Shown: positions 45,369 through 64,000, counted from the first letter of the stretch. The stretch: DNA of 64,000 nucleotides from Puniceicoccaceae bacterium (GCA_040830765.1 JBFOMH010000007.1:38356-102355), one strand, 5' to 3'. Numbers and translations: made by a program. Notes: a model not told the origin generated them from the sequence alone.

Positions 45369-45435
45369 ACGGATTGTGATTGTTTGTTTGCCCGGACGCT
45401 CAACTCAGGCCCTGGACGCCTGTGGCAGAACCCCT

Positions 45436-48560: not shown

Positions 48561-48749
48561 TAAGCTATGATTGGTCCTCTCTCAGTTAACAGCATAGTCC
48601 GGTCCTGTGACTCCCATTGCTCCTGAGAAAATATCGTTGGATGACATTCTACATCGCATTATCAGGCACCCCGCAAATACTCAACACTATCCCGAACAAG
48701 GCGTGACCCGATTAACGCTCCATTCTTCCAATTAATAGCTTCCTTTCAA

Positions 48750-49253: not shown

Positions 49254-49275
49254 GATAGTTCGTTCCTTTCCTGAT

Positions 49276-49369
49276 AATGTTGAAGCTTGAGTGCGAAACA
49301 GGCACCTGCCAGACGTAGTGGCAAGAACGCAGGAGGCTCGGCGGTTGGCGTCCACCCCTGCGACTTGTT
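49276..49369 (-). repeat. Decayed long attC
   Basis: AATGTTGAAGCTTGAGTGCG...GGCGTCCACCCCTGCGACTTGTT; 94 bp, like the long variants. Confidence 0.6.
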
Positions 49370-49380
49370 GGACCCGTAAT

Positions 49381-49887
49381 CTACCATGGATTGGATGGTA
49401 TAAAAATACTTTCTTTTTCCCCTATCGGTCTGTCACTCATCCATTCAAACCTGGATTTTTGATAACTTTCCTTCTGGAGGTAAAAAACGTCATTCCTGAT
49501 CTCTGTAAATCCATGGTTCATATAGTAGTCCAACAGATATCTTGGGCAACATAGCACCATTGGCAAATTAGCATCTTTTTGCTCTCTCCATGCTCTTAGC
49601 TTTTCAAACATCCGCATAGGTAGCCTTTGCCCCTGGTACTCCGGAACGACAACAACTGCACCAACCCCGATGCACTGCGTTCTTTCTCCATCGATTATCA
49701 GGGTGTAGACATCAAATCCGATGTGCCCTATGGCTTCCCCATCCGATGAGGCACGAATGTGCAAATTTCCACCTGCCCAATCCGTTCCTATTCCTTCGGG
49801 CGAAAAGACATGCTCGCGCCAAGTAGTCAGTACACGCCAATCCTCTTCGGATAGACTGTCTGTGATCTCTACTTTAATTTCGGACAT
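49381..49887 (-). CDS. GNAT N-acetyltransferase (cassette)
   Basis: GVGAVVVVPEYQGQRL and YYMNHGF motifs; the ATG lies inside GTTATG. Confidence 0.8.
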   Translation of the reverse strand: MSEIKVEITDSLSEEDWRVLTTWREHVFSPEGIGTDWAGGNLHIRASSDGEAIGHIGFDVYTLIIDGERTQCIGVGAVVVVPEYQGQRLPMRMFEKLRAWREQKDANLPMVLCCPRYLLDYYMNHGFTEIRNDVFYLQKESYQKSRFEWMSDRPIGEKESIFIPSNPW

Positions 49888-49938
49888 AACCTTGAAGCTG
49901 AGGTGCGACACGACAGCGTCCCACCGCCAATAGGGGTT
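49888..49938 (-). repeat. Decayed attC
   Basis: AACCTTGAAGCTGAGGTGCGACACGACAGCGTCCCACC... Confidence 0.65.
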
Positions 49939-49951
49939 GACCCCGGTTACA

Positions 49952-50488
49952 CTACCCTAACTTTTTGTAGTGCAAGAGAATAGTACTTTGATTAAGCAGA
50001 CGGTGCTCTATAAGCTCCAGCTTTTGCTCTCCAATATGCGGCATAAACAACTTACCCCCGCCAAGTACCAGAGGCTCAACTACACAAATCCACTCGTCGA
50101 CCAACCCGGAACGCGCGTACATTGAATATATCTCTCCCCCGCCTGCTACCAGAATTTTGGAAAGTCCCCTTGTCCCGAGTTCATTGACTAATTCCTGTGG
50201 TGGAAGGGCTGAAAATTCAATACCGTGATCCCCGTACTCGGCACTGTATTTTTCTGGATTGCGCGTTATGATCATGCTCAGGGGACCACCTTCCTGGTGC
50301 GCCTTCCCCCTAAGCATCATCTCCTTTACAATATCAAATGTGACCCTGCCTGTGATGACTGCGTCGTAGTCTCTGAGCAGCTTGAAAAAGTTTTCTCTGG
50401 TTTCAGGCGAGGAGAACGGTGTCCCCTCCGCATTGGGCGGTGAAATTCGCCCATCAATAGATATGGTGGTTACTGCAACGATTTTCAT
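49952..50488 (-). CDS. Dihydrofolate reductase/RibD C-terminal family protein
   Basis: ISIDGRI, ITGRVTF, VAGGGEI, GLVDE and EPLVLGGGK motifs. Confidence 0.85.
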   Translation of the reverse strand: MKIVAVTTISIDGRISPPNAEGTPFSSPETRENFFKLLRDYDAVITGRVTFDIVKEMMLRGKAHQEGGPLSMIITRNPEKYSAEYGDHGIEFSALPPQELVNELGTRGLSKILVAGGGEIYSMYARSGLVDEWICVVEPLVLGGGKLFMPHIGEQKLELIEHRLLNQSTILLHYKKLG

Positions 50489-50512
50489 GATTATTAAACT
50501 GACTTGCCAAAG

Positions 50513-51034
50513 TTAAGGCTGTGGCACAACCGGCAGGATCCGGCTTTCAAGGGTGAATGCCTGGCCGGGAAATTCAAAGGGAAACCTTCCATTGAATTGG
50601 ACCGGTACTCCCTTGTACTTCATTGGTTCAAATCGAAAGCTTTTGAGGGCATCTAGTGCGATTTCGTTCAGACTACTATCCGTACTCTCCGTCACAACAG
50701 CCTCTATAACAGTACCATCACTGCCAATAACGGCCTCTACGATGACCTTGTTGTCCTCCCAGAGGAACGGCACTTCCTTGGGTTTTGTCCATTCAATTAC
50801 TTTTGGATTCTCATAATCTGAGTCTATTCCAGAGCCGGGTCTTACGTTATACTTTCCGGCAAACTTCTTTTTAAGAGATTCCTCGGTTACCTTTACTTCC
50901 CCACCTTTAGTATAAATCGCATCACTACGGACCGCTTCAGCAGGGAAACGGCTGTTGGTGCATCCGGAGAAAAGTACCAGAAACACAATTGTGCAGTATA
51001 GCCTGATTCTAAAGTTGTAATCGACTCTATCCAT
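50513..51034 (-). CDS. Lipoprotein with a TonB C-terminal domain
   Basis: FSGC lipobox; VIVEAVIGSDGTV..LNEIALDALKSFRFEP. Confidence 0.78.
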   Translation of the reverse strand: MDRVDYNFRIRLYCTIVFLVLFSGCTNSRFPAEAVRSDAIYTKGGEVKVTEESLKKKFAGKYNVRPGSGIDSDYENPKVIEWTKPKEVPFLWEDNKVIVEAVIGSDGTVIEAVVTESTDSSLNEIALDALKSFRFEPMKYKGVPVQFNGRFPFEFPGQAFTLESRILPVVPQP

Positions 51035-51041
51035 ATCGGCG

Positions 51042-51090
51042 AACGTTAAAGCTAATCAGCGCCTGGGGGCGTCACCTCCAGCGGCTGGTT
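51042..51090 (-). repeat. Decayed (internally deleted) attC
   Basis: AACGTTAAAGCT...GGCGTCACCTCCAGCGGCTGGTT, 49 bp. Confidence 0.75.
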
Positions 51091-51544
51091 GTGCTAGGAG
51101 ATTCTTCTCCATCAAAATTTCGGTTAATCCTTCTTCTGAAACAACTTCCTTTATTGTGGAGTAGCCCAGTCTTTCGTAAAAACCGACAGCAGTCACGCTA
51201 CTGGGAACCCTTAGGATCTTGATTCCCCTGCACCTTGCCAGTTGCTCCAGATAATCTATCATTATTCGACCAAGGCCTTTGAAGTGCCGTCCGGGATCCA
51301 CAAAGAAGTCGTGAATCCATTCATTTTCCATGAGTGCAGCTGTAGCTACAATCTTTTCTTCAATCACCCCAACGAAAACTTCTTTTTCTTTTGATGCTAA
51401 AATTATTTCTTTGGGTGTATAATATTCCGCCAAGGTCGCCATCAAGGTAGGGTCATAATCCTTCGTATTAACCTCCAGTAGGTTCCGAAGAACAATTTCA
51501 GAAACTTCTTTTGCATCCTGGGGGGAGAACTTTCTTATCTCCAT
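51056..51544 (-). CDS. GNAT N-acetyltransferase (cassette)
   Basis: FFVDPGRHFKGLG and SSVTAVGFYERLGY motifs. Confidence 0.85.
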   Translation of the reverse strand: MEIRKFSPQDAKEVSEIVLRNLLEVNTKDYDPTLMATLAEYYTPKEIILASKEKEVFVGVIEEKIVATAALMENEWIHDFFVDPGRHFKGLGRIMIDYLEQLARCRGIKILRVPSSVTAVGFYERLGYSTIKEVVSEEGLTEILMEKNLLAQPAAGGDAPRR

Positions 51545-51553
51545 TGTTGCGAA

Positions 51554-51605
51554 ACCGTTAAAGCTGTAATGCGTCGTGAGCGCGAAGCAGGGTCAGCGGG
51601 TGGTT
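51554..51605 (-). repeat. Decayed attC
   Basis: ACCGTTAAAGCTGTAATGCG...CAGCGGGTGGTT. Confidence 0.65.
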
Positions 51606-51612
51606 AGGTCAC

Positions 51613-51933
51613 TTAATAATCGATTGTATCGATTAATTCGTAGTGAATAGCTTTTTGATCCCACCTCTTGAGAACTTGTTGTGCAACATCAGGGACATAG
51701 CACTTCTTATAATCTTTTCCTTGCAGGCCAATGACATCCTCCAGGGAATCATAGGTCATCATTGTAACAAACTCTACCTCGTCTTTCTTTGCTATTCTCA
51801 ATACTTCAAATTTCCGCAACCCGGAGATTTTCTTAGCTTCGATTCCCGGGATAACTTTATTCAAAAGGATGTCTTGGTACGCATCAGCGTCCTCAAGCGT
51901 AGTCCATCCATGCCAAACTCTTTTTATACTCAT
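51613..51933 (-). CDS. Antibiotic-biosynthesis-monooxygenase-like (dimeric alpha-beta barrel) protein
   Basis: IKRVWHGWT..DAY, EFVT and HYE motifs. Confidence 0.7.
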   Translation of the reverse strand: MSIKRVWHGWTTLEDADAYQDILLNKVIPGIEAKKISGLRKFEVLRIAKKDEVEFVTMMTYDSLEDVIGLQGKDYKKCYVPDVAQQVLKRWDQKAIHYELIDTIDY

Positions 51934-51949
51934 AGTAACCTTTTCGATT

Positions 51950-52858
51950 CTATTTTAGAAATTTCTTCAGGAAAGCGATTTGCGCTTCACTTGACTTATT
52001 GAAGAGATCGCTTGGGTGATACAATAAACCAAAATGTCCCCCATCAATTTCTACCCATTCTTTTGGTTTTTGAATCGTCTCAAATACTTCTCTTGCAACC
52101 ATTGGATTTGCTCCCTTCATCTCATCATTTGTTGCAACCACCATTAAAATTGGCGCCTTTAAATGTCGTGCACATTGTCCGATATGGAAACGATCCGGGG
52201 TCTCCGTGATGGAAAAGGAGACTACATTTTCCCAGTTTGTACCAAAACGACCCCCATGCTCGATAAACCATCGATAGGCGGTTAACTCAGTTAATGCTGA
52301 GGGGGTGCCCAATTGGTCTGCCGATACTATGGGCATTCGCTCAGTAACGGTGTGTGGCAGATCTGCAATTCTCTCAGTCAGAAGTGTCTTCTTGGCAAAG
52401 GAATAAAGCTCTCCACTCTCATCCTCCTCGGGAAATTCATCTCCGAAGGCTGGAATCATTGATATTACTGATTGAATTCTTTCATCAACAGTTCCAACAA
52501 GAAATGCCTCTCGAGCGCTCATGCTAGCTCCCCAAACGGCAATCCGTTGTGTGTCAACTTCGGACCGGGTATAAAGAAAATCAATTGCATCAATATAGCC
52601 CCGTGCTTGCATCCAAAAATTGATTTCCTGCCGGGGTTCACCACCGCTTCTCCCCAGATTTCGGTGATCATATAATAAAACCGAAAATCCGGCTTGTTGG
52701 AATGCTTCAGCGTACCTGTCAGCCGTCATCTCATTTATGGTCGTTGTAAATCCATGAGCCATAACAAGAACCGGGCTTGGCCTGGCACCTGTCTCCGATA
52801 TATACAATTTCCCTCTCAGGACAGCCTCTTGCGAGTTAAACTCAATATTATGAATCAT
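51950..52858 (-). CDS. Alpha/beta hydrolase
   Basis: MAHGF, YDHRNLGRSGGEPR, WGASMS and GGHF motifs. Confidence 0.85.
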   Translation of the reverse strand: MIHNIEFNSQEAVLRGKLYISETGARPSPVLVMAHGFTTTINEMTADRYAEAFQQAGFSVLLYDHRNLGRSGGEPRQEINFWMQARGYIDAIDFLYTRSEVDTQRIAVWGASMSAREAFLVGTVDERIQSVISMIPAFGDEFPEEDESGELYSFAKKTLLTERIADLPHTVTERMPIVSADQLGTPSALTELTAYRWFIEHGGRFGTNWENVVSFSITETPDRFHIGQCARHLKAPILMVVATNDEMKGANPMVAREVFETIQKPKEWVEIDGGHFGLLYHPSDLFNKSSEAQIAFLKKFLK

Positions 52859-52915
52859 TTATGTCTTCCTTGAATCATCTATGTATTACATCGAAGACTT
52901 GTCCCAGATAAATCT

Positions 52916-52967
52916 AAGGCTGAAGCGGAGCTACGCCTGCGAGGGACGTCACCACCAGCGGGTGGTC
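52916..52967 (-). repeat. Decayed attC
   Basis: AAGGCTGAAGCGGAGCTACGCC...CGTCACCACCAGCGGGTGGTC. Confidence 0.65.
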
Positions 52968-52983
52968 GGCGTCATATCAATTT

Positions 52984-53385
52984 TTAGCTTACACTGTTCA
53001 TTTGTCGCTCGTATTCGGCTTCATCGTAATTTCCAAGCGACTCTAGAATAAGTTTGTCCTCTCCAATCTTCCAACTTTCAAATCCGCTTATATTCACAGA
53101 CTTACCATTACCTCCGGGGCCCGTATTTGTCCCAGTCCAAGTCCATCGAAAAATTATCCTCTCCCCTTCTCGAGAGATTGAATCCATCTCTACTACCATA
53201 TCGGGGAATGCTTCCATAAATGATTTGGCAGTTCTGGAAATTTCATTCCGACCGACTGAGGGATCCCCCGAATTTATTTTGAGAACACCGTTTTCAGAGT
53301 AGAAACCAGCAAGTGATTCGGGATCCTGACTACTCCACGCCTGAGCATAGCTATTCGCAAGTTTGGCTAATTCTGAATCATTCAC
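52984..53385 (-). CDS. SnoaL-like/NTF2 protein (cassette)
   Basis: YAQAWSSQD, AFPDM and WTWTGTNTGPGGNGK motifs; AGGAG plus GTG start. Confidence 0.82.
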   Translation of the reverse strand: MNDSELAKLANSYAQAWSSQDPESLAGFYSENGVLKINSGDPSVGRNEISRTAKSFMEAFPDMVVEMDSISREGERIIFRWTWTGTNTGPGGNGKSVNISGFESWKIGEDKLILESLGNYDEAEYERQMNSVS

Positions 53386-53415
53386 TGTAGTTTCTCCTTA
53401 TTAATGTTTTTGCCT

Positions 53416-53466
53416 AATGTTAATGCTGAGGTATGCGGGCGAGCGGTGTCACCACCAGCGGGTGGT
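53416..53466 (-). repeat. Decayed attC
   Basis: AATGTTAATGCTGAGGT...GTCACCACCAGCGGGTGGT. Confidence 0.68.
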
Positions 53467-53494
53467 GGAAACATGACATATCGATTCCATATCA

Positions 53495-54274
53495 CTACGG
53501 ATAATTATCATTGAAAACAAAAGCTATCCCTTCAGCATAAGAAATTGGATAGGTGTTTTCGTAGTCACTGTTTGTATACTCTTCTGATTCAAACACTAAC
53601 CAAGGCAACTCTGCTTTATGAATGAGATCGATTACCTTATTGCATTTTTCTCTATCATTGCTTGTAGAAAACGAAAAATGTAATCTTTTCGTAGATTTTT
53701 GTTTTGGAATCTCCTTACTTTCCAATAGCTCTACTAGTGCGGATGCATATAGTCCTGATGGATCTGTAGCGATAAAATTTTCGAAAACAGATGACTCAAT
53801 TTCTTCTTGAAAGAGTGCCATAAGTACTACCCCAGATTCACTGCCTTTCCCAATGAAAGTTCTAGAGGGATTCATCGTGTATCTGTTACTGACAAATTCA
53901 GCCATATCCCTGAAGACAATATAATCATCCTGAAATTTATCCGGTTCTGCATCGATATCGGGAATTCCGTCTAATGCAACCACCAGAGCTTCGACGCCGT
54001 TTAGTTTTTGCAGACCAGCGATTACCTGTTCAAATTCGTCGGTAGCAATTTTAAAATGCTGCTCAGTATAATCTATTAAGTAAATAGCAGGTAGATAATT
54101 GTTCTCCTCGTAGGCCTTCGGAATAAAAATTTTTCCAGTTTTAGAATTTTCATTGGAGGTGAACTCAAAAATTTCTATTCTCTCAGAAGATTCTGCCACT
54201 GTTGATCCAGGCATTGTATTAACGCTAATCAACATAGGGCTCAAGCTGAGAGTTAATACTAAATATCTAATCAT
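53495..54274 (-). CDS. Secreted esterase-like alpha/beta-fold hypothetical protein (cassette)
   Basis: Signal peptide; IFIPKAY..LPAIYLID; RTFIGKGSESG (atypical nucleophile elbow); start moved to MIRYL. Confidence 0.6.
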   Translation of the reverse strand: MIRYLVLTLSLSPMLISVNTMPGSTVAESSERIEIFEFTSNENSKTGKIFIPKAYEENNYLPAIYLIDYTEQHFKIATDEFEQVIAGLQKLNGVEALVVALDGIPDIDAEPDKFQDDYIVFRDMAEFVSNRYTMNPSRTFIGKGSESGVVLMALFQEEIESSVFENFIATDPSGLYASALVELLESKEIPKQKSTKRLHFSFSTSNDREKCNKVIDLIHKAELPWLVFESEEYTNSDYENTYPISYAEGIAFVFNDNYP

Positions 54275-54302
54275 TAATTTTCTTCTCTCCCACGGTACTT
54301 CC

Positions 54303-54397
54303 ACCGTTAATGCTTTGGTGCGACACGAGCTGCGCCCCGCGAAGCCCGCAGGGCGAAGCGGGGCGTCAGCGAGTGGCGCCACCACCAGCGACTTGTT
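54303..54397 (-). repeat. attC, long variant with a 34-bp hairpin insert
   Basis: Family arms plus the insert at 54331-54364. Confidence 0.85.
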
Positions 54398-54944
54398 GAG
54401 CCCAGATTTTATATCCCCAGGCACAAAATGCATATAGCAGCAAGATATAGAATAATACTGTCATTAGGCTTTTCAGAATAGTAAAAATACTGGATATCAG
54501 AACGATCGAAGGAGATAAGTCAGGATAAGATACTAGCATGCTGATAATCCCTAAATTTTCCAAGTAATCGAAAACTCCAGCAGCAACTGGGATAATCGAG
54601 AACAAGAAAATTTTTGACGATTTGCTGAATGATTTTCCAAATACCCAAATTAACATTAGGGAGTAAGTAACAGCAAATAATCCAGGATAGATGAAATCTA
54701 CTGGCAATTGATGTGTTGCGTAAGTGCTTCTCCCCTCAACTCCTATTCCATGCAAAAGGTTTACAGCAAATTCCATGGAATAACCAAGTGGAGACATATC
54801 AAAAAGGACCATATCCGGCGCCTCCGACAAAACTGCAGGAATACTGACTAAGAGAATCCAAACATACACGCTCATGGTCACTAGAAACAAAACGAGAACG
54901 TTTCTTCCTGAGGCGTAGTTAAATAACTTTCCAATGGCTGTCAT
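54366..54944 (-). CDS. Four-TM membrane protein (cassette)
   Basis: DFIYP and AGVFDYLEN motifs; reads into the attC. Confidence 0.75.
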   Translation of the reverse strand: MTAIGKLFNYASGRNVLVLFLVTMSVYVWILLVSIPAVLSEAPDMVLFDMSPLGYSMEFAVNLLHGIGVEGRSTYATHQLPVDFIYPGLFAVTYSLMLIWVFGKSFSKSSKIFLFSIIPVAAGVFDYLENLGIISMLVSYPDLSPSIVLISSIFTILKSLMTVLFYILLLYAFCAWGYKIWAQQVAGGGATR

Positions 54945-54978
54945 AGTCCAGATTCTCTGCGACTATTAGAATCCGCTC

Positions 54979-55043
54979 AACGTCGCGGATCAGGCGCCAC
55001 TGAACGGCGTAGCCGTGAAGTGGTCGGCCTGCATGCGCTTGTT
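54979..55043 (-). repeat. attC of a different sequence family
   Basis: AAC...CAGGCGCCACT....AGTGGTCGGCCTG...GTT; R'' GCCTAAC matches the cassette start GTTAGGC. Confidence 0.8.
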
Positions 55044-55125
55044 AGGCGATATTTTGCTTTATTCACCAGATTAATTTCAATTCAGTAAGAAACGGATATT
55101 TTGAAGCGTACATGTTGAATATGAT

Positions 55126-55728
55126 TTGCTCATGGTTGAGCTAACTACTGCACTCGTATTTTTTCTATTTCCTCTGGCTTATAGCCCGGGGCCTGGTAAT
55201 TTATTCTTTGCTGCAAATGGTGCCAGATTCGGCCTCCGGTCGACCATTCCTGCAACGACCGGGTATCACATTGCCACATGGATAGTCACGGTAGCAATAG
55301 GTTTTGGGTTTACCGCAGTGCTCCACGAGTTTCCCAGTTTATTCATAATTATAAAGGTTCTAGGATCGTTATATGTTCTTTGGCTTGCATGGAAATTGTT
55401 GCGTTCTGGAATTATAGATTCTAGCCAAGAGCCAACTGTCGCCAGTTTCAAGGATGGTGTGGTGCTTCTAGTACTAAATCCCAAGGCGTATTTCATTATT
55501 GCTGCGATGTTTGCACAATTTATAAGCAACGACTTAGGTAACAAACTTGTCCTGGTTTTGTGGATCTCAACGATCTTCACGTTCAACAATCTCCTGGCAT
55601 TTACACTATGGACAATTGTTGGAGATCGACTCGCAATCTTGTTCCGAAATGAATCTAATGCGAGATTAATGAATATAGGATTTGGGAGCCTGTTGGCCGC
55701 AGTAGCTACTTGGATGTTCTTTTCGTAG
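55126..55728 (+). CDS. LysE/RhtB family exporter (inverted within its cassette)
   Basis: SPGPGN, YVLWLAWK and LNPKAY motifs. Confidence 0.88.
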   Translation: MLMVELTTALVFFLFPLAYSPGPGNLFFAANGARFGLRSTIPATTGYHIATWIVTVAIGFGFTAVLHEFPSLFIIIKVLGSLYVLWLAWKLLRSGIIDSSQEPTVASFKDGVVLLVLNPKAYFIIAAMFAQFISNDLGNKLVLVLWISTIFTFNNLLAFTLWTIVGDRLAILFRNESNARLMNIGFGSLLAAVATWMFFS

Positions 55729-55747
55729 TTGAATCTCGCTATCGCCT

Positions 55748-55808
55748 AACGTTAAAGCTGTGGTGCGGCACGAGCGTCAGCGAGTGGCTTCACCACCAGC
55801 GATTGGTT
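55748..55808 (-). repeat. attC (main family)
   Basis: AACGTTAAAGCTGTGGTGCG..CACCACCAGCGATTGGTT, 61 bp. Confidence 0.9.
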
Positions 55809-55813
55809 CGATT

Positions 55814-56548: not shown

Positions 56549-56566
56549 GCTTTTTTGTCTTATTCG

Positions 56567-56660
56567 AACGTTAAAGCTGTGGTGCGGAGCGAGCGTGAGT
56601 CCCGCGAAGCTCGCAGAGCGTAGCGGGATCAGCGAGCGCCGTCACCACCAGCGGCTTGTT
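56567..56660 (-). repeat. attC, long variant with a 33-bp hairpin insert
   Basis: Family arms plus CCCGCGAAGCTCGCAGAGCGTAGCGGG. Confidence 0.88.
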
Positions 56661-57210: not shown

Positions 57211-57222
57211 TATAAATAAGCG

Positions 57223-57284
57223 AACGTTGAAGCTGAGCTACGCGTGCGAGCGACAGCGAGCCGCGTTAGCTCTAGCGAGTGGTT
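57223..57284 (-). repeat. attC (subtype B) of a gene-less cassette
   Basis: AACGTTGAAGCTGAGCTACGCG..CGCGTTAGCTCTAGCGAGTGGTT. Confidence 0.88.
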
Positions 57285-57384
57285 GTATCCTTGCCACCCA
57301 GTTTCCTAACCCTAAATCCGGCCGCTCCGACCCAGGGTAACAAGTTACTTTTTCTTTTAATTCCATAAATACCTTAGGGGATAC

Positions 57385-57479
57385 AACGTTAAAGCTGTGG
57401 TGCGCCAGGAGCTGTGCCCTGCGAAGCCCGCAGGGCGAAGCGGGGCGTCAGCGAGTGGCGTCACCACCAGCGAATGGTT
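57385..57479 (-). repeat. attC, long variant with a 34-bp hairpin insert
   Basis: Family arms plus the insert at 57413-57446. Confidence 0.88.
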
Positions 57480-57820
57480 AGTGTTTCTGCTATTGAGTCC
57501 AAACGCTTATCCAAAGTCCAAAGGGGTATCTCATAGATTATTGCTGAACACAAAATAGCCGCATCAAAATATCCGATCCCCTTCCCATACAATTTTCTCT
57601 CTTCGATGAAATAGAGCACTTCAGAGTGTGAACATTCAGAAATTGCAGGCAAATCTCCCAATAACCCTAAGAACTGTTTTCGCTTCGTAATATTTCCGAT
57701 GTGCAACTCCCCAATTACCAAGGGATGCGTTGCGACTTCTCCGTCTTGAAGAAGATTCTTTAATTTCTCATTTCCCTGTCTCAGGAAATCTATCCATACC
57801 GATGTGTCTACCAGGACCAT
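57461..57820 (-). CDS. vapC: VapC/PIN toxin (TA cassette)
   Basis: VLVDTSVWIDFL, HPLVIGEL, GIGYFDAAI and LWTLDKRL motifs. Confidence 0.9.
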   Translation of the reverse strand: MVLVDTSVWIDFLRQGNEKLKNLLQDGEVATHPLVIGELHIGNITKRKQFLGLLGDLPAISECSHSEVLYFIEERKLYGKGIGYFDAAILCSAIIYEIPLWTLDKRLDSIAETLTIRWW

Positions 57821-58002
57821 TACCTTCTCCTGATCGGTTCAACCTTTGGGGAACTACCCCCCAGTTTTGCCAGCCTTCGGGAACTCTCTTTTTCTATCAA
57901 GGTCCTTAAGCCTTCGTGCAACAACTGGGTTTTCTCCCTTATCCCCGTCAGCTTGGAGGCCTTTTCGTAAATACTATCGTCAATGTTTAGGGTTGTTCTC
58001 AT
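57820..58002 (-). CDS. vapB: VapB antitoxin (RHH; TA cassette)
   Basis: MRTTLNIDD..GIREKTQLLHEGL..RRLAKLGGS; the stop overlaps the vapC start. Confidence 0.88.
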   Translation of the reverse strand: MRTTLNIDDSIYEKASKLTGIREKTQLLHEGLRTLIEKESSRRLAKLGGSSPKVEPIRRR

Positions 58003-58037
58003 GCATATACGTATGCATCTTTCGTCTGCATTGTCAA
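58001..58037 (-). promoter_or_regulatory. Cassette-internal promoter/operator of vapBC
   Basis: TTGACA on the minus strand (58032-58037); palindrome ATGCATA-N4-TATGCAT (58001-58018) over the start codon. Confidence 0.6.
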
Positions 58038-58048
58038 TACTTTCCACT

Positions 58049-58110
58049 AACGTTGAAGCTGAGCTACGCGTGCGAGCGACAGCGAGCCGCGTTAGCTCCA
58101 GCGATTGGTT
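58049..58110 (-). repeat. attC (subtype B) of a gene-less cassette
   Basis: Near-identical to 57223-57284. Confidence 0.88.
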
Positions 58111-58223
58111 CTGTCCTTAAAATAAACATCCTTCCCCACTCCACTAAACTATTACTTTTACCATCAAGGGGGTAACTCGAACTCTTTCTATTTCCTGGGA
58201 CTTGGTTCACTTTTACTCTACAG

Positions 58224-58284
58224 AACGTTAAAGCTGTGGTGCGACACGAGCGTCAGCGAGTGGCGTTACCACCAGCGATTGGTT
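58224..58284 (-). repeat. attC (main family)
   Basis: 61-bp family repeat; R'' GCACAAC. Confidence 0.9.
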
Positions 58285-58288
58285 GTGC

Positions 58289-58789
58289 TCATCCATATAA
58301 TTCTGGAAAAACTTTGGGGTAGTAAAATACACTTCTATACCATCCTGATATGAAGTAGTGAACAATTATTGATATGATATTGGCCGCGAACGAGAGGATT
58401 AAGCAGTACGGTATCCAGATTCTTTCTTTTCTATCTTCATTCCTCGTCAAGAAATACAAGAGGATTCCTTCAACAGCGATTACGCAAGACTCTCCAAAAC
58501 CAACCAATAACCATAAATTTTCCATTCCTTTTTCATTCCAGGCTATATGATCCAGGTAACTGGAGAGAATCATATAGGTCCCAAGGGTGCAAACGAACCA
58601 TTTCAGAATGAACTTAACTTTCTCTTTTTCTCTTAAAACCAGCGACAGAAAGATTCCCTCTGCAAGGAGGGCGATCGGAGCTGCGAGGAGAAATGCTCCA
58701 ATAGGTTGGGTAAACCATACAACTACTGGGTTTCCATAGCATCCCAGAGGGAGCAGAAGTATCGTACCGGCGAGCAGGTTTCTTTTCAT
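58289..58789 (-). CDS. Hypothetical membrane protein (cassette)
   Basis: Multiple TM segments; bounded by attC sites. Confidence 0.72.
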   Translation of the reverse strand: MKRNLLAGTILLLPLGCYGNPVVVWFTQPIGAFLLAAPIALLAEGIFLSLVLREKEKVKFILKWFVCTLGTYMILSSYLDHIAWNEKGMENLWLLVGFGESCVIAVEGILLYFLTRNEDRKERIWIPYCLILSFAANIISIIVHYFISGWYRSVFYYPKVFPELYG

Positions 58790-58798
58790 TTAATGCAC

Positions 58799-58859
58799 AA
58801 CGTTAAAGCTGTGGTGCGCCCGAAGCGTCAGCGAGTGGCGTCACCACCAGCGATTGGTT
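58799..58859 (-). repeat. attC (main family) of a gene-less cassette
   Basis: 61-bp family repeat; R'' CCCGAAC. Confidence 0.9.
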
Positions 58860-59063
58860 CGGGCATGATAAGTTGGAATTCATTTATATTCTCTCCCCTA
58901 AAATTCCTTAAAACTATTTTAATTTCTCATCCCCCTTTTTTGTGCCTAAAAAGCTAATCTCTAGAACGTTACTTTTTATTCCTCCACCCTTTCCGATACT
59001 GATTCTCTTCCTGCTCCTCATTTTAATTACCATTCCTGGTCTTCTCTAAATTATATTCCCCCG

Positions 59064-59127
59064 AACGTTAAAGCTGTGCTACGGCCTGTGAGCGACAGCG
59101 AACGGCCGTTAGCACCAGCGGGTGGTT
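59064..59127 (-). repeat. attC (variant)
   Basis: GCTGTGCTACGGCC..GGCCGTTAGCACCAGC arms, 64 bp. Confidence 0.88.
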
Positions 59128-59137
59128 GAAATAATTT

Positions 59138-59632
59138 TCAGTCAAACTCATTAGAAAGGCATACCCTCTTCTCCTTTACGAGTTTTCGTAAATCGCCATA
59201 TCTCTGGCTCTCCAAAACTGGAACTAAGTTTATCACCAGAGGAGGCCTATTCTTAACTGTAAATACAATTAATTTCTCTTTCTCTTTATAACCGCTAACT
59301 TCACGCCAGTTTAGGACTCTGGCCCCTAATTTATCCTCTAAAATTATTCCCTTTTCGGAAATCAAAAACACTTTCTCTCTATGGGGACTAATGAATGCCT
59401 TCCAATATATTGACCGAAAGAACAAACTAAATAGAAAAAGTACGGGAAGCACTAAATACGCAGAGATTAAGACGAGCGTGAGTGTTGATGGATAGTGCTG
59501 GTATCCCATATACATAACCCCACAAAACACTGGAAGACTAATTAGGATCAAAATCTCTATGCCGAAGTTTGGGGAAGATCCTTGCAAGTACTTCGGCAGA
59601 GAAATCCTGTAAGGTACTTCTATTTCTTTCAT
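59138..59632 (-). CDS. Two-TM membrane protein with a YcxB-like C-terminus (cassette)
   Basis: Two TM helices, then ISEKGI..LNWREVSGYKE. Confidence 0.65.
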   Translation of the reverse strand: MKEIEVPYRISLPKYLQGSSPNFGIEILILISLPVFCGVMYMGYQHYPSTLTLVLISAYLVLPVLFLFSLFFRSIYWKAFISPHREKVFLISEKGIILEDKLGARVLNWREVSGYKEKEKLIVFTVKNRPPLVINLVPVLESQRYGDLRKLVKEKRVCLSNEFD

Positions 59633-59635
59633 TTC

Positions 59636-59696
59636 AACGTTAAAGCTGTGGTGCGCCCGAAGCGTCAGCGAGGAGCGTCACCACCAGCGATTGGTT
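59636..59696 (-). repeat. attC (main family)
   Basis: 61-bp family repeat. Confidence 0.9.
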
Positions 59697-60105
59697 GGGT
59701 CTCTTCCTTGAATTTATTGCTATGGACTAAAAGCAGTAAAAACGCACTAACTACAATCCAAAGAGAAAACATATATCCCACTTGAAAGACAGTTGGATTC
59801 AATACTTCCACATCCTGCACCGTTAGAGCGTTCTCTTTACCTGCTATTTGTGCCCCCACCATTAGACCAAACACTAAAACTATCATTACCCATACCAATC
59901 CGATTAACCATTTCCTCGCTATCGATTTATAGTTCCACAACCCAAGTGCCAAAGGTAGGGAAGGTATAAACGATAAATCCCAGCGCTGACCTCCAAATAC
60001 CATTAGATTCAAATTTGAAAGGATACTCTCAGCAGTTACGATAAACATAACCAATGCCAAGGACCTTGAGACATCAACATTTTGTTTTGTGAGGAACTGG
60101 TTCAT
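59665..60105 (-). CDS. Hypothetical membrane protein (cassette)
   Basis: Four hydrophobic segments; reads into the attC. Confidence 0.72.
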   Translation of the reverse strand: MNQFLTKQNVDVSRSLALVMFIVTAESILSNLNLMVFGGQRWDLSFIPSLPLALGLWNYKSIARKWLIGLVWVMIVLVFGLMVGAQIAGKENALTVQDVEVLNPTVFQVGYMFSLWIVVSAFLLLLVHSNKFKEETQPIAGGDAPR

Positions 60106-60114
60106 TTTATACCC

Positions 60115-60175
60115 AACGTTAAAGCTGTGGTGCGCCCGAAGCGTCAGCGAGTGGCGTCACCACCAGCGATTGGTT
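60115..60175 (-). repeat. attC (main family)
   Basis: 61-bp family repeat. Confidence 0.9.
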
Positions 60176-60245
60176 AGATATTGTTTTGTATTCCACCAGC
60201 CACATTCGCTTCGAATCATAAACACCTACTTTTCAATTACTATAC

Positions 60246-60578
60246 TCAAACAAAAAACAATATACCGACGACTAAGACCACTATAATGAATAAGGTTAAG
60301 AATACCTTGGCACTAATATCCATTCGCTTCTCTGTTGCCAGGATACTCGGTGTCCTTCTTTCCAAATAATAGGGGTCATCTAATTTTTTGTGCCATGAGT
60401 TAGAAGAAAATCCATCGAATACGGTTGGATAATCGAGATATTGATAAACCTCAGGTCTTTCCTTTTTCAAGGTGCTCAAGAATAGTTTAGCGTTGAAGAC
60501 GTAAACACTAAAAACAGTGACCAAAATGAGGAAGGAACTCACCCCAAAAATCTCAACGCCATCCAAACTACTATTCAT
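60246..60578 (-). CDS. Hypothetical two-TM protein (cassette)
   Basis: N- and C-terminal TM helices; bounded by attC sites. Confidence 0.7.
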   Translation of the reverse strand: MNSSLDGVEIFGVSSFLILVTVFSVYVFNAKLFLSTLKKERPEVYQYLDYPTVFDGFSSNSWHKKLDDPYYLERRTPSILATEKRMDISAKVFLTLFIIVVLVVGILFFV

Positions 60579-60582
60579 ATCT

Positions 60583-60643
60583 AACGTTAAAGCTGTGGTG
60601 CGACACGAGCGTCAGTGAGTGGCGTCACCACCAGCGAATGGTT
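60583..60643 (-). repeat. attC (main family)
   Basis: 61-bp family repeat. Confidence 0.9.
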
Positions 60644-60650
60644 CGAAAAT

Positions 60651-61151
60651 TTACTTGATTGGTCTATATGCATTTTCTGGTTCTATTTTCTTAACCACCG
60701 TCCCCAATCTCATATCAAGCAGAGACTTACCGTATCTATTGAAGAAAATCGTGAGATAATTGCATAGCACGAGAAGCAATAGACCGAATACCAACAATCC
60801 GATTACCATAGATACGGGATTACCATCTTCTCTTAAATTTTTCCCTCTTAACAATGTTCCAGGAATTACAATAAGGGCAAAATATAGGATAATGGGTATA
60901 TTTCTTATTAACCTATTTCTAAATGCCACCATACTATTATCGTCATTGAGGACCCTGAGCTTCATTAACCATTTCCCAGGGCTTTGGTATGTGTAAGTAG
61001 AAACAATAACCGCTGCTACTGTGACTATAGCGATTGAGTATTGGTCTGTAATCGAGAACCAAATGAGTAATTGGATTATAGCCGTAAGCGAAAAGTAGTT
61101 GATGATAAGAGCTGCTGCTCTTCGTCCAACATGTGCTTCAATATATTCCAT
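60651..61151 (-). CDS. RDD family membrane protein (cassette)
   Basis: RRAAALIINY, QSPGKWLMKLRV, LIRN and SLLDMRLGTVV motifs. Confidence 0.8.
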   Translation of the reverse strand: MEYIEAHVGRRAAALIINYFSLTAIIQLLIWFSITDQYSIAIVTVAAVIVSTYTYQSPGKWLMKLRVLNDDNSMVAFRNRLIRNIPIILYFALIVIPGTLLRGKNLREDGNPVSMVIGLLVFGLLLLVLCNYLTIFFNRYGKSLLDMRLGTVVKKIEPENAYRPIK

Positions 61152-61156
61152 ATTCG

Positions 61157-61217
61157 AACGTTAAAGCTGTGGTGCGACACGAGCGTCAGCGAGTGGCGTC
61201 ACCACCAGCGACTGGTT
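61157..61217 (-). repeat. attC (main family)
   Basis: 61-bp family repeat; the gene's TAA stop lies in R''. Confidence 0.9.
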
Positions 61218-61638
61218 ATGCCATTTTATTAATCTCTCCGATAGCGTCGAAATAAATCCAACCATGGTTTCCCTCAAAAAAGTCCTCTGGTAAATCGACA
61301 TAGAAAAAAGTCCCGACACTTCCTTCTTCCTCGAATTCGCTTTTTAATTTTTCCGACATACTGCGATACAAAAATATTATATCAATTTCCACCTCTTCAT
61401 TGTTTTTTGGATTTATTACTTTGAAGCGGGCTCTCGGGCAGACGGAATCTGCCGTTAATGTCCCTTCTTCTCTACCCTCTTCATCAACAATAACTATTTC
61501 ATGAGCATGCCAATGTGCTTTCTCGTAGCCAACCAGGGTTCCGGTCAGTTTAATATACTCTTCTGCAAAAACATTAGATTGCACCACCAACAACAAGAAA
61601 ACTAGAAGGGGATTTCTCACAGTGATACTATTTCGCAT
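61216..61638 (-). CDS. Hypothetical secreted acidic protein (cassette)
   Basis: Signal peptide; the ORF fills the cassette from GTTATG to GCATAAC. Confidence 0.72.
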   Translation of the reverse strand: MRNSITVRNPLLVFLLLVVQSNVFAEEYIKLTGTLVGYEKAHWHAHEIVIVDEEGREEGTLTADSVCPRARFKVINPKNNEEVEIDIIFLYRSMSEKLKSEFEEEGSVGTFFYVDLPEDFFEGNHGWIYFDAIGEINKMA

Positions 61639-61699
61639 AACGTTAAAGCTGTGGTGCGCCCGAAGCGTCAGCGAGTGGCGTCACCACCAGCAATTGGTT
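61639..61699 (-). repeat. attC (main family)
   Basis: 61-bp family repeat. Confidence 0.9.
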
Positions 61700-61703
61700 A
61701 AAT

Positions 61704-62507
61704 CTAAGGTTTCAGAGAAATGCTAGCAGTTGTGGAGTATCCAGATACCCAATCGTCATCATCAGCTCGCAACCGCAACAAAAGATCATTGATTTCTTTC
61801 TCAGAGCCAAAAAAGTCCTTCTTACTCCTGAGCATTTCTATTGCTTCTATCCTGGGCGGTGAATACATTGGATGGCGGATTGGGATTACAGGCGCATATG
61901 TAGCTCCTGTTGCAATCGCTATCAGTTCTCTGTAACTCAATTCACCCATTGCTTCCCAGTCGTACTGTGCAGCAGTGACTTCACTGTCACTAACCAGTCC
62001 TTCACCAATGTTTGAGGCGATAAAGCTTTTCTTAACATACTTATACTTCTCTTTACCTTCAATTTCACCTTCACCCAACTTCCAATAGTAATCCACTGAT
62101 AGAACGTATCTTACCTCCTTTAACTCACCCGCTTTGGCTTTGTAGCCCCAAACTTTTAGGAAATTTCCCGGTGGAAGAGTTACAGATGATCTATATCCTG
62201 TAGCACAACCACTAGCAGGTCGATGAACCCACTGGGCACGGCGCCAGCTCTCGTGCGTATCATTGAAGTGGAGATGTACAATTTGGTGGTTTCCATAAGT
62301 AAGGAGGGTTATTTCCTTCTCTGTGGTGTTGAGCAAGTAGACATCGGCATATCCCATGGAGTCACTTTGATAGTCGGCAAACAATGAAACCTCGTTATCG
62401 GCAACATGAACATGCTTCGGCAATTCCTCAATCGGGAGGACATCAAAGCCAGACACATGAGACGCGATTGCTAAATTAACTATAAAACCAATTAGGTAAC
62501 GGGTCAT
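61704..62507 (-). CDS. Hypothetical secreted protein (cassette)
   Basis: Signal-peptide-like N-terminus; bounded by attC sites. Confidence 0.72.
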   Translation of the reverse strand: MTRYLIGFIVNLAIASHVSGFDVLPIEELPKHVHVADNEVSLFADYQSDSMGYADVYLLNTTEKEITLLTYGNHQIVHLHFNDTHESWRRAQWVHRPASGCATGYRSSVTLPPGNFLKVWGYKAKAGELKEVRYVLSVDYYWKLGEGEIEGKEKYKYVKKSFIASNIGEGLVSDSEVTAAQYDWEAMGELSYRELIAIATGATYAPVIPIRHPMYSPPRIEAIEMLRSKKDFFGSEKEINDLLLRLRADDDDWVSGYSTTASISLKP

Positions 62508-62520
62508 TTCTATATCATTT

Positions 62521-62581
62521 AACGTTAAAGCTGTGGTGCGACACGAGCGTCAGCGAGTGGCGTCACCACCAGCGACTGGTT
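62521..62581 (-). repeat. attC (main family)
   Basis: 61-bp family repeat. Confidence 0.9.
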
Positions 62582-62602
62582 CTACCAAACATTTCTGTCG
62601 CA

Positions 62603-62800
62603 CTATATTCTCCAAATTAACGCCCTCCCCTGCTTTCTATCCCGTTTCAGGTCTATTTCCTTTTCCAATTCCGCCACCCAGGTCGGACAAGGACGCTCAT
62701 AAGGTAATTCCAACGTTTTCTTTATCTCTTTCCAGGTCCTACCTTCAGGGTAATTCGATAACTCTTTTCTTATACTATCCCTGAACTCCCGATACCTCAT
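62603..62800 (-). CDS. Small basic winged-helix-like protein (cassette)
   Basis: 65 aa; PEGRTWKEIKKTL..WVAELEKE..IWRI pattern. Confidence 0.65.
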   Translation of the reverse strand: MRYREFRDSIRKELSNYPEGRTWKEIKKTLELPYERPCPTWVAELEKEIDLKRDRKQGRALIWRI

Positions 62801-62810
62801 TACTCTGTAG

Positions 62811-62871
62811 AACGTTAAAGCTGTGGTGCGGCGCGAGCGTCAGCGAGTGGCGTCACCACCAGCGGGTGGTT
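62811..62871 (-). repeat. attC (main family)
   Basis: 61-bp family repeat. Confidence 0.9.
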
Positions 62872-63433
62872 GGGCCAAGTTCAATTTAATTATCCTGTAG
62901 GATTCATTGACTGATTTCTCAGGAATTACTCCAGATATATATACCGGTGGCGGAAGCATAAGATATACTTTGGAAATTTGCTTCTTAGGTTTTAACACAC
63001 AATTCGTGATTGCATGAATATTTTCCTGAGTGGAAACAAATGGTTCATCTGTATGGATAATTAAAGAAATTTCCTGATATGGCCCGCCTAAGTACTTCTT
63101 ATTATCTTTTCCGGTGGCTATTTCTTCTATCAACTCCACCAACTCATCACTCTCATATTCCTTATAATCTCTAGATCTATCTTGTTCCCATTTTACTACT
63201 GTATCGAAATCAACTAATTCAGTTACTTCAAAACCTACTAAGGTTCCGTCTTCTAATTCTGCTACACAGTCTGGAGGATCTTTTTCAGCAAGTCGAAGAC
63301 GGGAAAACGGAACTTTACCGTCACCAAAGTATGATAAGGAAAAATCATGTACGATACTTACTTCTTTAATTTCCTTGTCTGGCCAATCAAAGAAGGAGGC
63401 ATACTTCCTGAATCGTATTTCAGTTAATTTCAT
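62840..63433 (-). CDS. Hypothetical protein with a PD-(D/E)xK-like nuclease motif (cassette)
   Basis: DPPDCVAELEDGTLVGFEVTELVD; reads into the attC. Confidence 0.6.
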   Translation of the reverse strand: MKLTEIRFRKYASFFDWPDKEIKEVSIVHDFSLSYFGDGKVPFSRLRLAEKDPPDCVAELEDGTLVGFEVTELVDFDTVVKWEQDRSRDYKEYESDELVELIEEIATGKDNKKYLGGPYQEISLIIHTDEPFVSTQENIHAITNCVLKPKKQISKVYLMLPPPVYISGVIPEKSVNESYRIIKLNLAQPPAGGDATR

Positions 63434-63443
63434 AAGACTGCCC

Positions 63444-63504
63444 AACGTTAAAGCTGTGGTGCGCTACGAGCGACAGCGAGTAGCGTCACCACCAGCGACT
63501 GGTT
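63444..63504 (-). repeat. attC (main family)
   Basis: 61-bp family repeat. Confidence 0.9.
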
Positions 63505-63988
63505 GGGCCTCTAAAACTTTGTTCCAAGAATAATAGACTAGCACCAACGACATGCAACCCCCCATAAAAGTTAACCATATCAGCAAGTAGTCCAGTGCTA
63601 CAGTAATCTGCCCCGAAAGACTATTCTGCAACTCTAATGATATGTGGCTAACTAATAATCCGAGGGGTACACCGAGTATCTCACATATCAATACTGATAC
63701 TATTCTGCGCCTAAAGGCTAAAAGCAAAGAATAAGTATACACCAATATTAACCCTGCAATTGACCCAAATAATCCAGAAATCAGTGCTAAAATCAGGATG
63801 ACATATTTGATCCCTGCCGAGGACACAAAAATTGATACCTCTTCCGGATATCGTTCGAGCCAGAAAATAAAAATAATTATTGGGACCAGCGATATCAGTA
63901 ATACTGAAAGACTACCCATTAAACCGAAGGTTTTTCTAAACTTAGGATTGAATAGTGGATAGGCTTTGAAAAAGAAATATATATCCAT
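63464..63988 (-). CDS. Hypothetical four-TM membrane protein (cassette)
   Basis: Hydrophobic ORF; the window ends at GCCCAAC, the edge of the next attC. Confidence 0.72.
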   Translation of the reverse strand: MDIYFFFKAYPLFNPKFRKTFGLMGSLSVLLISLVPIIIFIFWLERYPEEVSIFVSSAGIKYVILILALISGLFGSIAGLILVYTYSLLLAFRRRIVSVLICEILGVPLGLLVSHISLELQNSLSGQITVALDYLLIWLTFMGGCMSLVLVYYSWNKVLEAQPVAGGDATRCRS

Positions 63989-64000
63989 TATCTGCCCAAC

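Follow-up and report, generated by a model that had tools for sequence, protein, structure and literature searches.

The cassette array and its chromosomal setting

The right-hand part of the window, that is, of the whole 64,000-nucleotide stretch of Puniceicoccaceae bacterium DNA analysed here (contig C7, positions 38356-102355), is occupied by a long series of integron recombination sites (attC) and the small genes lying between them. This array spans 49272-63508 and comprises 24 attC sites of a single polarity, of which 18 are well preserved (54299-63508) and six are decayed (49272-53471). The right edge of the window coincides with the end of contig C7, and an overlapping contig carries an intact gene for an integron integrase (IntI) together with a conserved boundary that marks the attI site. 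As developed below, the locus is very probably the array of cassettes belonging to an integron that is complete and fixed in the chromosome (sedentary).

Genes in the left 38 kb of the window are of a usual chromosomal kind, among them those for rhamnose and fucose catabolism, LutB and acetate kinase, and the contiguity of the array with 49 kb of chromosomal genes supports a chromosomal location. No transposase or transposition genes were noticed in the view around the array, in which no systematic search for them was made. In a search with LutB, all 80 loci kept were from Verrucomicrobiota except one labelled just “bacterium”, and the top matches (86-99%) were Puniceicoccaceae or Puniceicoccales records. 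Relatives of IntI are likewise Opitutae-type records throughout, save for one Lentisphaerota and one Pirellulaceae label. An earlier, sequence-only reading of this DNA had proposed a probable Verrucomicrobiota genome; these core-gene matches and integrase relatives uphold that proposal and support the placement of the host genome within Puniceicoccaceae, Verrucomicrobiota.

A homogeneous family of attC sites

Eleven of the 18 good sites measure 61 nt from AAC to GTT and match the consensus quoted in the sequence-only reading, which had reported 18 intact and mostly 61-bp sites at 54303-63504; all 18 were recovered here, at 54299-63508. Two sites of 62 nt and one of 64 nt vary in stem sequence but pair by compensation, three sites of 94-95 nt have a longer terminal hairpin, and a 65-nt site at 54975-55047 shares the polarity of the rest while being unrelated to them in sequence. 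The site starting at 54299 has ACC in place of AAC, the only one of the 18 to do so. In all, 16 of the 18 good sites belong to one homogeneous attC family. In the six decayed sites, which start at 49272, 49884, 51038, 51550, 52912 and 53412, triplets are mutated or a stem arm has been lost.

A covariance model (R1) trained on 17 of the good sites scores the decayed sites, all six of which lie outside its training set, at 12.7-29.3 bits. Over the 3.99-Mb genome, a strict pattern, used in place of an earlier loose two-motif search that was too permissive, gave 20 matches, 17 of them within the array and the other three lacking a stem. R1 itself gave 18 genome matches at E ≤ 0.001, all in this array (150 of 1489 first-look candidates scored). 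Rfam returned no match at E ≤ 0.1 in 47000-64000, its library apparently holding no fitting family. The sites, from attI outwards, are as follows.

63994..64000, plus strand: box GCCCAAC at the contig end, on the cassette side of the attI junction (141-nt overlap; three-genome alignment)
63440..63508, plus (bottom, recombined strand): attC 1 (61 nt), nearest attI; R1 92.1 bits (training sequence); boxes GCCCAAC and GTTGGGC
62807..62875, plus: attC 2 (61 nt); R1 88.9 bits
62517..62585, plus: attC 3 (61 nt); R1 92.0 bits
61635..61703, plus: attC 4 (61 nt); R1 88.3 bits
61153..61221, plus: attC 5 (61 nt); R1 92.4 bits
60579..60647, plus: attC 6 (61 nt); R1 90.5 bits
60111..60179, plus: attC 7 (61 nt); R1 92.1 bits
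59632..59700, plus: attC 8 (61 nt); R1 86.3 bits
59060..59131, plus: attC 9 (64 nt), variant stem with compensating changes and the same two bulges; R1 71.7 bits; fold -15.5 kcal/mol, z -2.46
58795..58863, plus: attC 10 (61 nt); R1 89.2 bits
58220..58288, plus: attC 11 (61 nt); R1 88.9 bits
58045..58114, plus: attC 12 (62 nt, variant stem); R1 76.5 bits; 94% identical to the site at 57223
57381..57483, plus: attC 13 (95 nt, long terminal hairpin); R1 81.1 bits; fold -27.9 kcal/mol, z -3.94
57219..57288, plus: attC 14 (62 nt, variant stem); R1 72.8 bits
56563..56664, plus: attC 15 (94 nt); R1 69.0 bits
55744..55812, plus: attC 16 (61 nt); R1 87.9 bits
54975..55047, plus: attC 17 (65 nt), unrelated sequence, missed by R1; both flanking box pairs 7/7; fold -19.2 kcal/mol, z -2.53, with 3′-arm bulges
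54299..54401, plus: attC 18 (95 nt), left triplet ACC; R1 64.8 bits
53412..53471, plus: decayed attC (AAT and GTG triplets); R1 26.6 bits, not a training sequence
52912..52971, plus: decayed attC (AAG and GTC); R1 12.7 bits, E 0.2, weak by itself
51550..51609, plus: decayed attC, right stem arm partly deleted; R1 24.2 bits
51038..51094, plus: decayed attC (49 nt, left stem arm lost); R1 29.3 bits
49884..49942, plus: decayed attC; R1 15.6 bits, E 0.03
49272..49373, plus: outermost decayed attC (AAT triplet), left limit of the recognisable array; R1 16.6 bits, E 0.015; no better site leftward to 38000

Cassette register and site structure

The register of the array was assessed by comparing the 7-nt box that follows each GTT with the 7-nt box that precedes the next AAC rightward. 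Seventeen of the 18 pairs formed by a cassette start and its own box are complementary at 7/7 positions and the remaining one at 6/7, whereas the two boxes within a single linear site match at 5/7 or fewer in 17 of 18 cases. The sequence-only reading had stated that each cassette start complements its own R″ box and not that of its neighbour, and all six of the box pairs that it quoted are present. This register is the footprint of units that were formerly circles closed at G/TT (the slash marking the point of exchange). Box complementarity is mirror-symmetric and by itself gives no array orientation, a caveat on the argument as first made; orientation follows from the positions of the bulges, the strand of the open reading frames (ORFs) and the position of intI. 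In one distal cassette (boxes at 53464-53470 and 54299-54305), GGT and ACC stand in place of GTT and AAC, and the boxes are still perfectly complementary (GGTGGAA and TTCCACC), the two triplet changes compensating each other within the cassette.

On the plus strand, the stem reads GCTG-TGGTG-CG ... CG-T-CACCA-C-CAGC, with an unpaired T and an unpaired C on the 3′ arm, opposite the 5′-AAC, and unpaired spacers of 6 and 5 nt. An attC site's bottom strand is defined by bulges opposite AAC in the account of site structure given by Nivina et al. (2016; PMC5027507), and the position of the bulges thus identifies the plus strand of the window as the attC bottom strand; the bulged C and T ascribed to that strand by the sequence-only reading are both found there. 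By our own count they are C17 and T23, with 5 bp between them. The same account gives the usual attC bulges as a G at position 16 and a conserved T at 23 or 24, with IntI1 needing a 6-bp stem between the two. As far as these rules go, the present geometry agrees with them in having its extrahelical bases opposite AAC, a spacer of 5-6 nt and a distal T at position 23 (own numbering).

Comparative evidence supports this structure. Within the array, five stem pairs show changes at both positions that compensate each other, and none of 500 shuffles reaches the observed score. Across relatives, in an alignment of 36 sites drawn from 15 loci in other genomes, covariation is seen at 10 of 13 stem pairs, and 93% of cells are paired, as opposed to 22-53% when the partner is slid; this alignment was fitted to R1 and so leans towards the structure. 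The bulged T and C are in place in nearly all of its rows that were displayed. For the variant and long sites of the array, the expected hairpin is also the minimum-energy fold on the plus strand.

The integrase gene and the attI boundary

Of the 16 ORFs in intact cassettes, all but one are encoded on the minus strand (15 of 16) and start a few bases past the preceding site, so that an integrase was to be expected to the right. The sequence-only reading had likewise placed intI and attI beyond base 64000, and the sole integron integrase gene of the genome does lie there, on contig C18 (locus L001) at 426-1751, plus strand, divergent from the cassettes. It scores 379.6 bits against TIGR02249 (378.8 for residues 132-441 of the translated protein; cut-off 265), and the six other tyrosine-recombinase matches in the genome reach at most 81.7 bits. 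Against NF011946, the IntI1-type equivalog, it obtains 291.6 bits, under the cut-off of 435. The protein aligns without gaps to VchIntIA (PDB 2a3v) over 2a3v residues 20-320 (E 4.5e-74), its own residues 305-346 being covered, while its alignment to XerA falls into two pieces that skip residues 305-346; judged from these alignments, the skipped segment is the IntI-specific insertion. The reading frame is open, and R257, K285, H388, R391, H414 and Y423 are invariant in 20 relatives.

C7 and C18 overlap exactly: the final 141 nt of the former recur unchanged as the opening 141 nt of the latter, and the 60-mers flanking this stretch are unique. The assembly has six end overlaps of this sort, the present one included. 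If the contigs are joined accordingly, cassette 1 would end in ...GCCCAAC, followed directly by AGTTCAAATGTCCCGAC, and intI would start 285 nt further on; the distance from the nearest attC end to the intI start would then be 777 nt, a value that rests on the contig overlap. The GCCCAAC box at the end of C7 is the 7/7 complement of the own box of cassette 1 at 63502-63508. In addition, a Logan contig of run X1, the likely source run, extends 1774 nt beyond the window end (its sequence was not read).

An alignment of three genomes (this one; L009, a Puniceicoccaceae metagenome-assembled genome with 92% IntI identity; and L008, an Oceanipulchritudo metagenome-assembled genome with 60%) shows homology that begins exactly at AAC/AGTT (AAC/AGTTCAAATGT; L001 141/142), with unrelated cassettes leftward of this point. 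Homology that starts here while different cassettes lie to its left marks attI. Two features of this region lie outside the window.

L001 (C18) 142 to ~425: putative attI, from the three-genome alignment
L001 (C18) 426-815: region of IntI encoding an extra N-terminal domain and linker

With intI and attI present on an overlapping contig, the locus is very probably a complete integron rather than a group of attC sites that has no integron integrase (CALIN), the category to which the sequence-only reading would have assigned it had the genome proved to have no such integrase.

A promoter scan of the attI region found one sigma-70-like match of 9/12 positions, on the minus strand at L001 155-128, spanning the junction, with 0.4 expected by chance. 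The 13-mer CAGATGTCCAAAT has only two copies in the genome, one in the conserved attI-intI spacer (L001 317-329) and the other at 39893-39905, between two small genes 24 kb to the left of the array; a related 9-mer, CAAATGTCC, is found in the attI core. Beyond intI are a tRNA-Gly gene and more chromosomal-looking genes. This tRNA-Gly(GCC) gene is found downstream of intI, on the strand opposite to it, in the present locus (L001 1853-1928) as well as in L009 (3137-3212), where it is about 1.3 kb farther from intI. In relatives, the distance between intI and a contig end is often 400-1100 nt, and assemblies seem to break at the attI-cassette junction, as would be expected if first cassettes vary within populations.

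An additional N-terminal domain in IntI

IntI is 441 aa long, and about 130 residues precede the usual start. The long frame is conserved, extending 415-485 aa from the first ATG in 20 of 25 loci examined, and open frames of at least 430 aa occur in 15 of 19 matches from genomes of the family (both counts including the present locus). Residues 13-93 are confidently predicted to form a helical bundle (predicted local distance difference test, pLDDT, 72-92 by block), followed by a linker, residues 97-124, predicted to be disordered. When aligned by hhalign to the SAM-like domain of the same IntI, the N-terminal part gives a probability of 73.6% (E 2.9e-5), and in a protein atlas it is placed beside SAM-like domain clusters (0.95-0.96); the atlas also holds a similar long architecture in a mostly Thermodesulfobacteriota cluster. 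Foldseek gave no match for the domain at E ≤ 0.001, its best rows being Cre N-terminal domains at E 0.24-0.9. The N-terminal part is thus probably a second core-binding-like domain, as modelled. A literature search found no paper on Opitutae or Puniceicoccaceae integron integrases with an N-terminal extension.

One might speculate that Opitutae integrons form a distinct class, defined by a further core-binding-like (SAM-like) domain, N-terminal and flexibly linked, together with C and T bulges 5 bp apart, in which the domain could contact accessory sequences of attI or a fifth DNA element of the synapse. We regard this proposal as doubtful. Were it true, sites would be recognised in a way for which IntI1 and VchIntIA offer no precedent, and it could explain why the attC geometry of this clade departs from the IntI1 spacing rule.

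Cassette cargo

Pfam families were matched by 12 of the 24 ORFs in the array, the other 12 having no family above cut-off. The families comprise three GNAT acetyltransferases, a VapB/PIN toxin-antitoxin pair, LysE, RDD, polysaccharide deacetylase, SnoaL, alpha/beta hydrolase, RibD_C and TonB_C. The sequence-only reading had described most of the cargo as being of unknown function; this stands for the intact proximal part, where 10 of 16 ORFs lack a family, while for the whole array the proportion is only half (12 of 24). Six of those 10 have at least two hydrophobic segments in a simple hydropathy scan. NCBIfam matched none of 13 family-less ORFs, including the 12 of the array, and PADLOC matched no defence model among 25 cassette and flanking ORFs, including all 24 of the array. 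No resistance cassettes were identified in the array, and three of its cassettes are short and contain no ORF. The cassettes and distal genes are listed below.

63464..63988, minus: cassette 1, ORF of 174 aa, five hydrophobic segments, no family; start 12 nt from the attI junction
62840..63433, minus: cassette 2, ORF of 197 aa from the first ATG outside attC, no family
62603..62800, minus: cassette 3, ORF of 65 aa, no family
61704..62507, minus: cassette 4, ORF of 267 aa, no family
61216..61638, minus: cassette 5, ORF of 140 aa, one N-terminal hydrophobic segment, no family
60651..61151, minus: cassette 6, ORF of 166 aa, RDD-family membrane protein; PF06271 42.7 bits
60246..60578, minus: cassette 7, ORF of 110 aa, no family
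59665..60105, minus: cassette 8, ORF of 146 aa, membrane-like, ending inside its own attC
59138..59632, minus: cassette 9, ORF of 164 aa, no family
58864-59059: cassette 10, without an ORF of at least 60 aa
58289..58789, minus: cassette 11, ORF of 166 aa, four hydrophobic segments, no family
58115-58219: cassette 12, short, ORF-less
57461..58047, minus: cassette 13, toxin-antitoxin pair, VapB antitoxin (57820-58047; PF09957 51.3 bits) and PIN toxin (57461-57820; PF01850 39.1 bits)
57219-57380: cassette 14, short, ORF-less (57289-57380 plus attC 14); aligned to the first cassette of L009
56629..57210, minus: cassette 15, GNAT acetyltransferase, 193 aa; PF13302 95.3 bits
55814..56548, minus: cassette 16, polysaccharide deacetylase-like, 244 aa; PF01522 32.1 bits
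55126..55728, plus: cassette 17, LysE-type exporter, the sole opposite-strand cassette gene, paired with the unrelated attC; PF01810 70.4 bits
54366..54944, minus: cassette 18, ORF of 192 aa, membrane-like, no family
53495..54274, minus: ORF of 259 aa, no family above cut-off
52984..53385, minus: SnoaL-like ORF, 133 aa; PF07366 64.8 bits
51950-52858, minus: alpha/beta hydrolase, 302 aa, between decayed sites
51613-51933, minus: ORF of 106 aa, no family, between decayed sites
51056..51544, minus: GNAT acetyltransferase, 162 aa; PF13673 64 bits
50513-51034, minus: TonB_C-domain protein
49952-50488, minus: RibD_C-like reductase
49381..49887, minus: GNAT-like ORF, 168 aa; PF00583 21.3 bits (cut-off 20.7)

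Between the RibD_C-like and TonB_C genes, only a half-site remnant could be read in the sequence. Four ORFs (3′ ends at 63464, 62840, 59665 and 54366) run into attC and share a C-terminal tail, ..AGG(D/G)A(T/P)R, that is encoded by the conserved stem. Contigs of runs X2 and X3 of the same study carry the LysE cassette (54972-55767) at 99% identity, with 8 differences in 796, and the cassette beside it (54365-54983) is about 91% identical on those contigs.

Beyond the last attC that can be recognised, on its left, a run of small genes on the minus strand (38700-49270) belongs to families typical of cassettes, with three of glyoxalase type, two GNAT and one each of cupin, SH3, rhodanese, NUDIX and acyltransferase_3; from 44 kb on, the GC content drops from about 56% to about 48%. 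Among these genes lies one for a 632-aa BspA-type leucine-rich repeat protein (41020-42918, plus strand; PF13306, 178 bits). No attC remnants were found between the genes of 38700-49270 and no AAC..GTT hairpins in the intergenic stretches of 38.2-48.7 kb, and a leftward scan with R1 gave two marginal matches only (38387, E 0.32; 42729, E 1.2), which do not show an extension of the array past 49272. This region could be an ancient stretch of the array in which decay is complete, or else an island that has nothing to do with it.

Distribution and signs of past movement

Genes for IntI above cut-off are present in 15 of 36 other genomes of Puniceicoccaceae. The attC family described here occurs in seven of the 36, namely in five of 12 from the same genus and in two from other genera, and incomplete genomes may hide more. 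In two of these genomes the attC matches reach 88.7-91 bits. At the relatives' loci, all 29 R1 matches lie on the intI strand and upstream of intI.

Several observations are indirect signs that cassettes have moved in the past. The first cassettes differ at the same attI point among the three genomes aligned above. The short ORF-less cassette at position 14 here (57289-57380), made up of about 105 nt and a variant 62-nt attC, has a homologue at position 1 in L009 (25-130), and contigs of run X1 show other flanks at three attC sites. Apparent “joints” in runs X2-X4 that might have been taken for excision events were rejected as repeat artefacts, their sides being 24-34 nt at attC with less than 95% likeness, and the uncovered parts in these runs are uninformative. 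The shared ORF-less cassette contains a small palindrome, GTAACAAGTTAC, and could be a promoter cassette or a small RNA cassette.

The plus strand is C-rich from 30 kb onwards in C7 and over the whole of C18. If the usual skew rule holds, the attC bottom strands are probably on the leading-strand template, the arrangement carried by 25 of 30 sedentary integrons in Loot et al. (2017; PMC5371416).

A sedentary integron and the alternatives

Taken together, these features argue strongly for the cassette array of a complete sedentary integron. The sequence-only reading had also called the integron sedentary, a probable inference with which the chromosomal flanks, the homogeneous attC family common to congeners and the view around the array, free of transposition genes, all agree. 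In its most likely mode of working, IntI would bind the folded plus strand of attC and cut between the A and C of AAC, and this strand would be exchanged with attI (...AAC/AGTT...), after which replication would resolve the recombination product. New circular cassettes would enter beside attI, and the cassettes would be read leftwards, on the minus strand, from a promoter presumably located in the attI-intI spacer. The toxin-antitoxin cassette would penalise large deletions. The 17 cassettes nearest attI look movable, and the integron may well be active today; the six sites farthest from attI are decayed, so that their genes would be fixed.

A number of points weigh against this interpretation. 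The 17 strong R1 matches in the window are the model's own training sequences and give no independent support. The GC content of the array is 39-46%, compared with about 56% genome-wide. For the 61-nt consensus site in its linear context, the minimum-energy fold of the plus strand is not the expected hairpin. The first bulge is C17 and not G16, and the bulges are 5 bp apart, as against the 6 bp given for IntI1 in the rules cited above (PMC5027507). The join between the contigs is an assembly-graph overlap in a metagenome-assembled genome, with no spanning read or contig sequence seen, and C7 stops one base after the predicted attI crossover point, which suggests a branch in the graph, that is, other arrangements in the sample. 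Finally, the scan of the attI region yielded no convincing promoter, a result to be read with the possibility that the promoter type of this phylum differs from the sigma-70 consensus.

The alternative that survives best is that the integron is frozen, its integrase or the expression of that integrase being no longer functional in this lineage, and that the array is a static, decaying gene bank. The six decayed distal sites and the one proximal site with ACC for AAC would fit this idea, as would the failure of the scan to reveal a clear promoter or regulatory site. The bottom strand is moreover on the C-rich strand, the would-be leading-strand template, an orientation said by Loot et al. (2017) to limit excision (PMC5371416). 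Yet the intI frame is open with all catalytic residues invariant, 17 of 18 junctions are still perfect, the first cassettes of related genomes differ at a constant attI point, the short cassette occupies position 14 here and position 1 in L009, and three attC sites have different flanks in contigs from run X1, the likely source, all of which speaks against a static array. We consider a frozen integron unlikely.

Less probable still is that the locus is a CALIN, the 141 nt shared with the contig of intI being an artefact of the graph or the property of another strain in the sample. The assembly is a metagenome bin, the C7 end at the junction implies a branch, and the spanning sequence was not read, all of which would be compatible with such an error. 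Against it, the overlap is exact and unique in the genome, and the contig ends precisely in the 7/7 complement of the box at 63502-63508. The identical junction point recurs in two other genomes, the genome has a single intI and a single array, and an independent Logan contig runs 1774 nt past the end. The idea that the repeats are of some other palindromic kind unrelated to integrons, such as repetitive extragenic palindromes (REPs), miniature inverted-repeat transposable elements (MITEs), terminators or CRISPR-like repeats, can draw on their being G+C-rich intergenic hairpins, as terminators and REPs are, and on the empty Rfam search, which leaves no family to test against, but it has a negligible likelihood: the repeats are confined to a single locus and strand, the variable parts of their AAC and GTT boxes match across each gene and not within each repeat, they have two conserved bulges and covarying stems, and they adjoin an integron integrase, none of which fits REPs, MITEs or CRISPR.

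Comparison with known integrons

Verrucomicrobia are already among the phyla with integrons in the survey of Cury et al. (2016; PMC4889954), and the present locus, from the same phylum, is the same kind of element as the integrons listed there. The passages of that survey on long arrays link them with homogeneous attC sites. Its main text, in the portions available, contains no description of the Opitutae IntI clade, its attC family or its attI, and a literature search returned nothing on Verrucomicrobiota integrons beyond phylum-level mentions. The locus thus supplies a fully delimited integron (intI, attI junction, 18 good and six decayed attC sites) in a phylum in which integrons have been listed but, according to these searches, not dissected. 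The covariance model R1 finds the same attC family in related genomes. The differing identity and spacing of the bulges provide a natural test of attC rules derived from IntI1 and VchIntIA, and the locus yields an IntI whose additional N-terminal domain can be deleted to test its role. It also brings together small cassette proteins, mostly membrane-like and of unknown function, from a Verrucomicrobiota lineage that is host-associated or marine.

Similarities to the superintegron of Vibrio cholerae are extensive. As in that system, the integrase has the integron-specific insertion (E 4.5e-74 to VchIntIA, PDB 2a3v), the attC sites form a homogeneous, lineage-specific family, the array is divergent from intI, there is a toxin-antitoxin cassette among mostly unknown small genes, and the bottom strand is probably on the template of the leading strand. 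By contrast, there are about 24 cassettes here, where the V. cholerae array has well over a hundred, and the attC site is 61 nt long with a short tip, where VCR sites are about 130 nt (133 bp for VCR2 as described in PMC5027507). The bulges are C and T, 5 bp apart, in place of G, T and T; an additional N-terminal domain of about 95 aa sets IntI apart from VchIntIA; and the host belongs to Verrucomicrobiota and not to Gammaproteobacteria.

With the class 1 mobile integrons (IntI1, attI1, attC such as attCaadA7) the locus shares the layout of its sites, in which an R box, an unpaired spacer of 5-6 nt, an L box or stem with two extrahelical bases and a short tip together occupy about 60 nt, as well as insertion at G/TT. 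Unlike those elements, it has no identified transposon or plasmid context and no identified resistance cassettes, its attC sites are near-identical to one another where those of mobile integrons are diverse, and its IntI falls under the NF011946 cut-off (291.6 as against 435 bits). The window alone, being without an integrase, would resemble a CALIN, but intI lies 285 nt past the junction on the overlapping contig. Overall, the locus is a well-preserved but ordinary example of a known system, and it leaves the definition of an integron unchanged.

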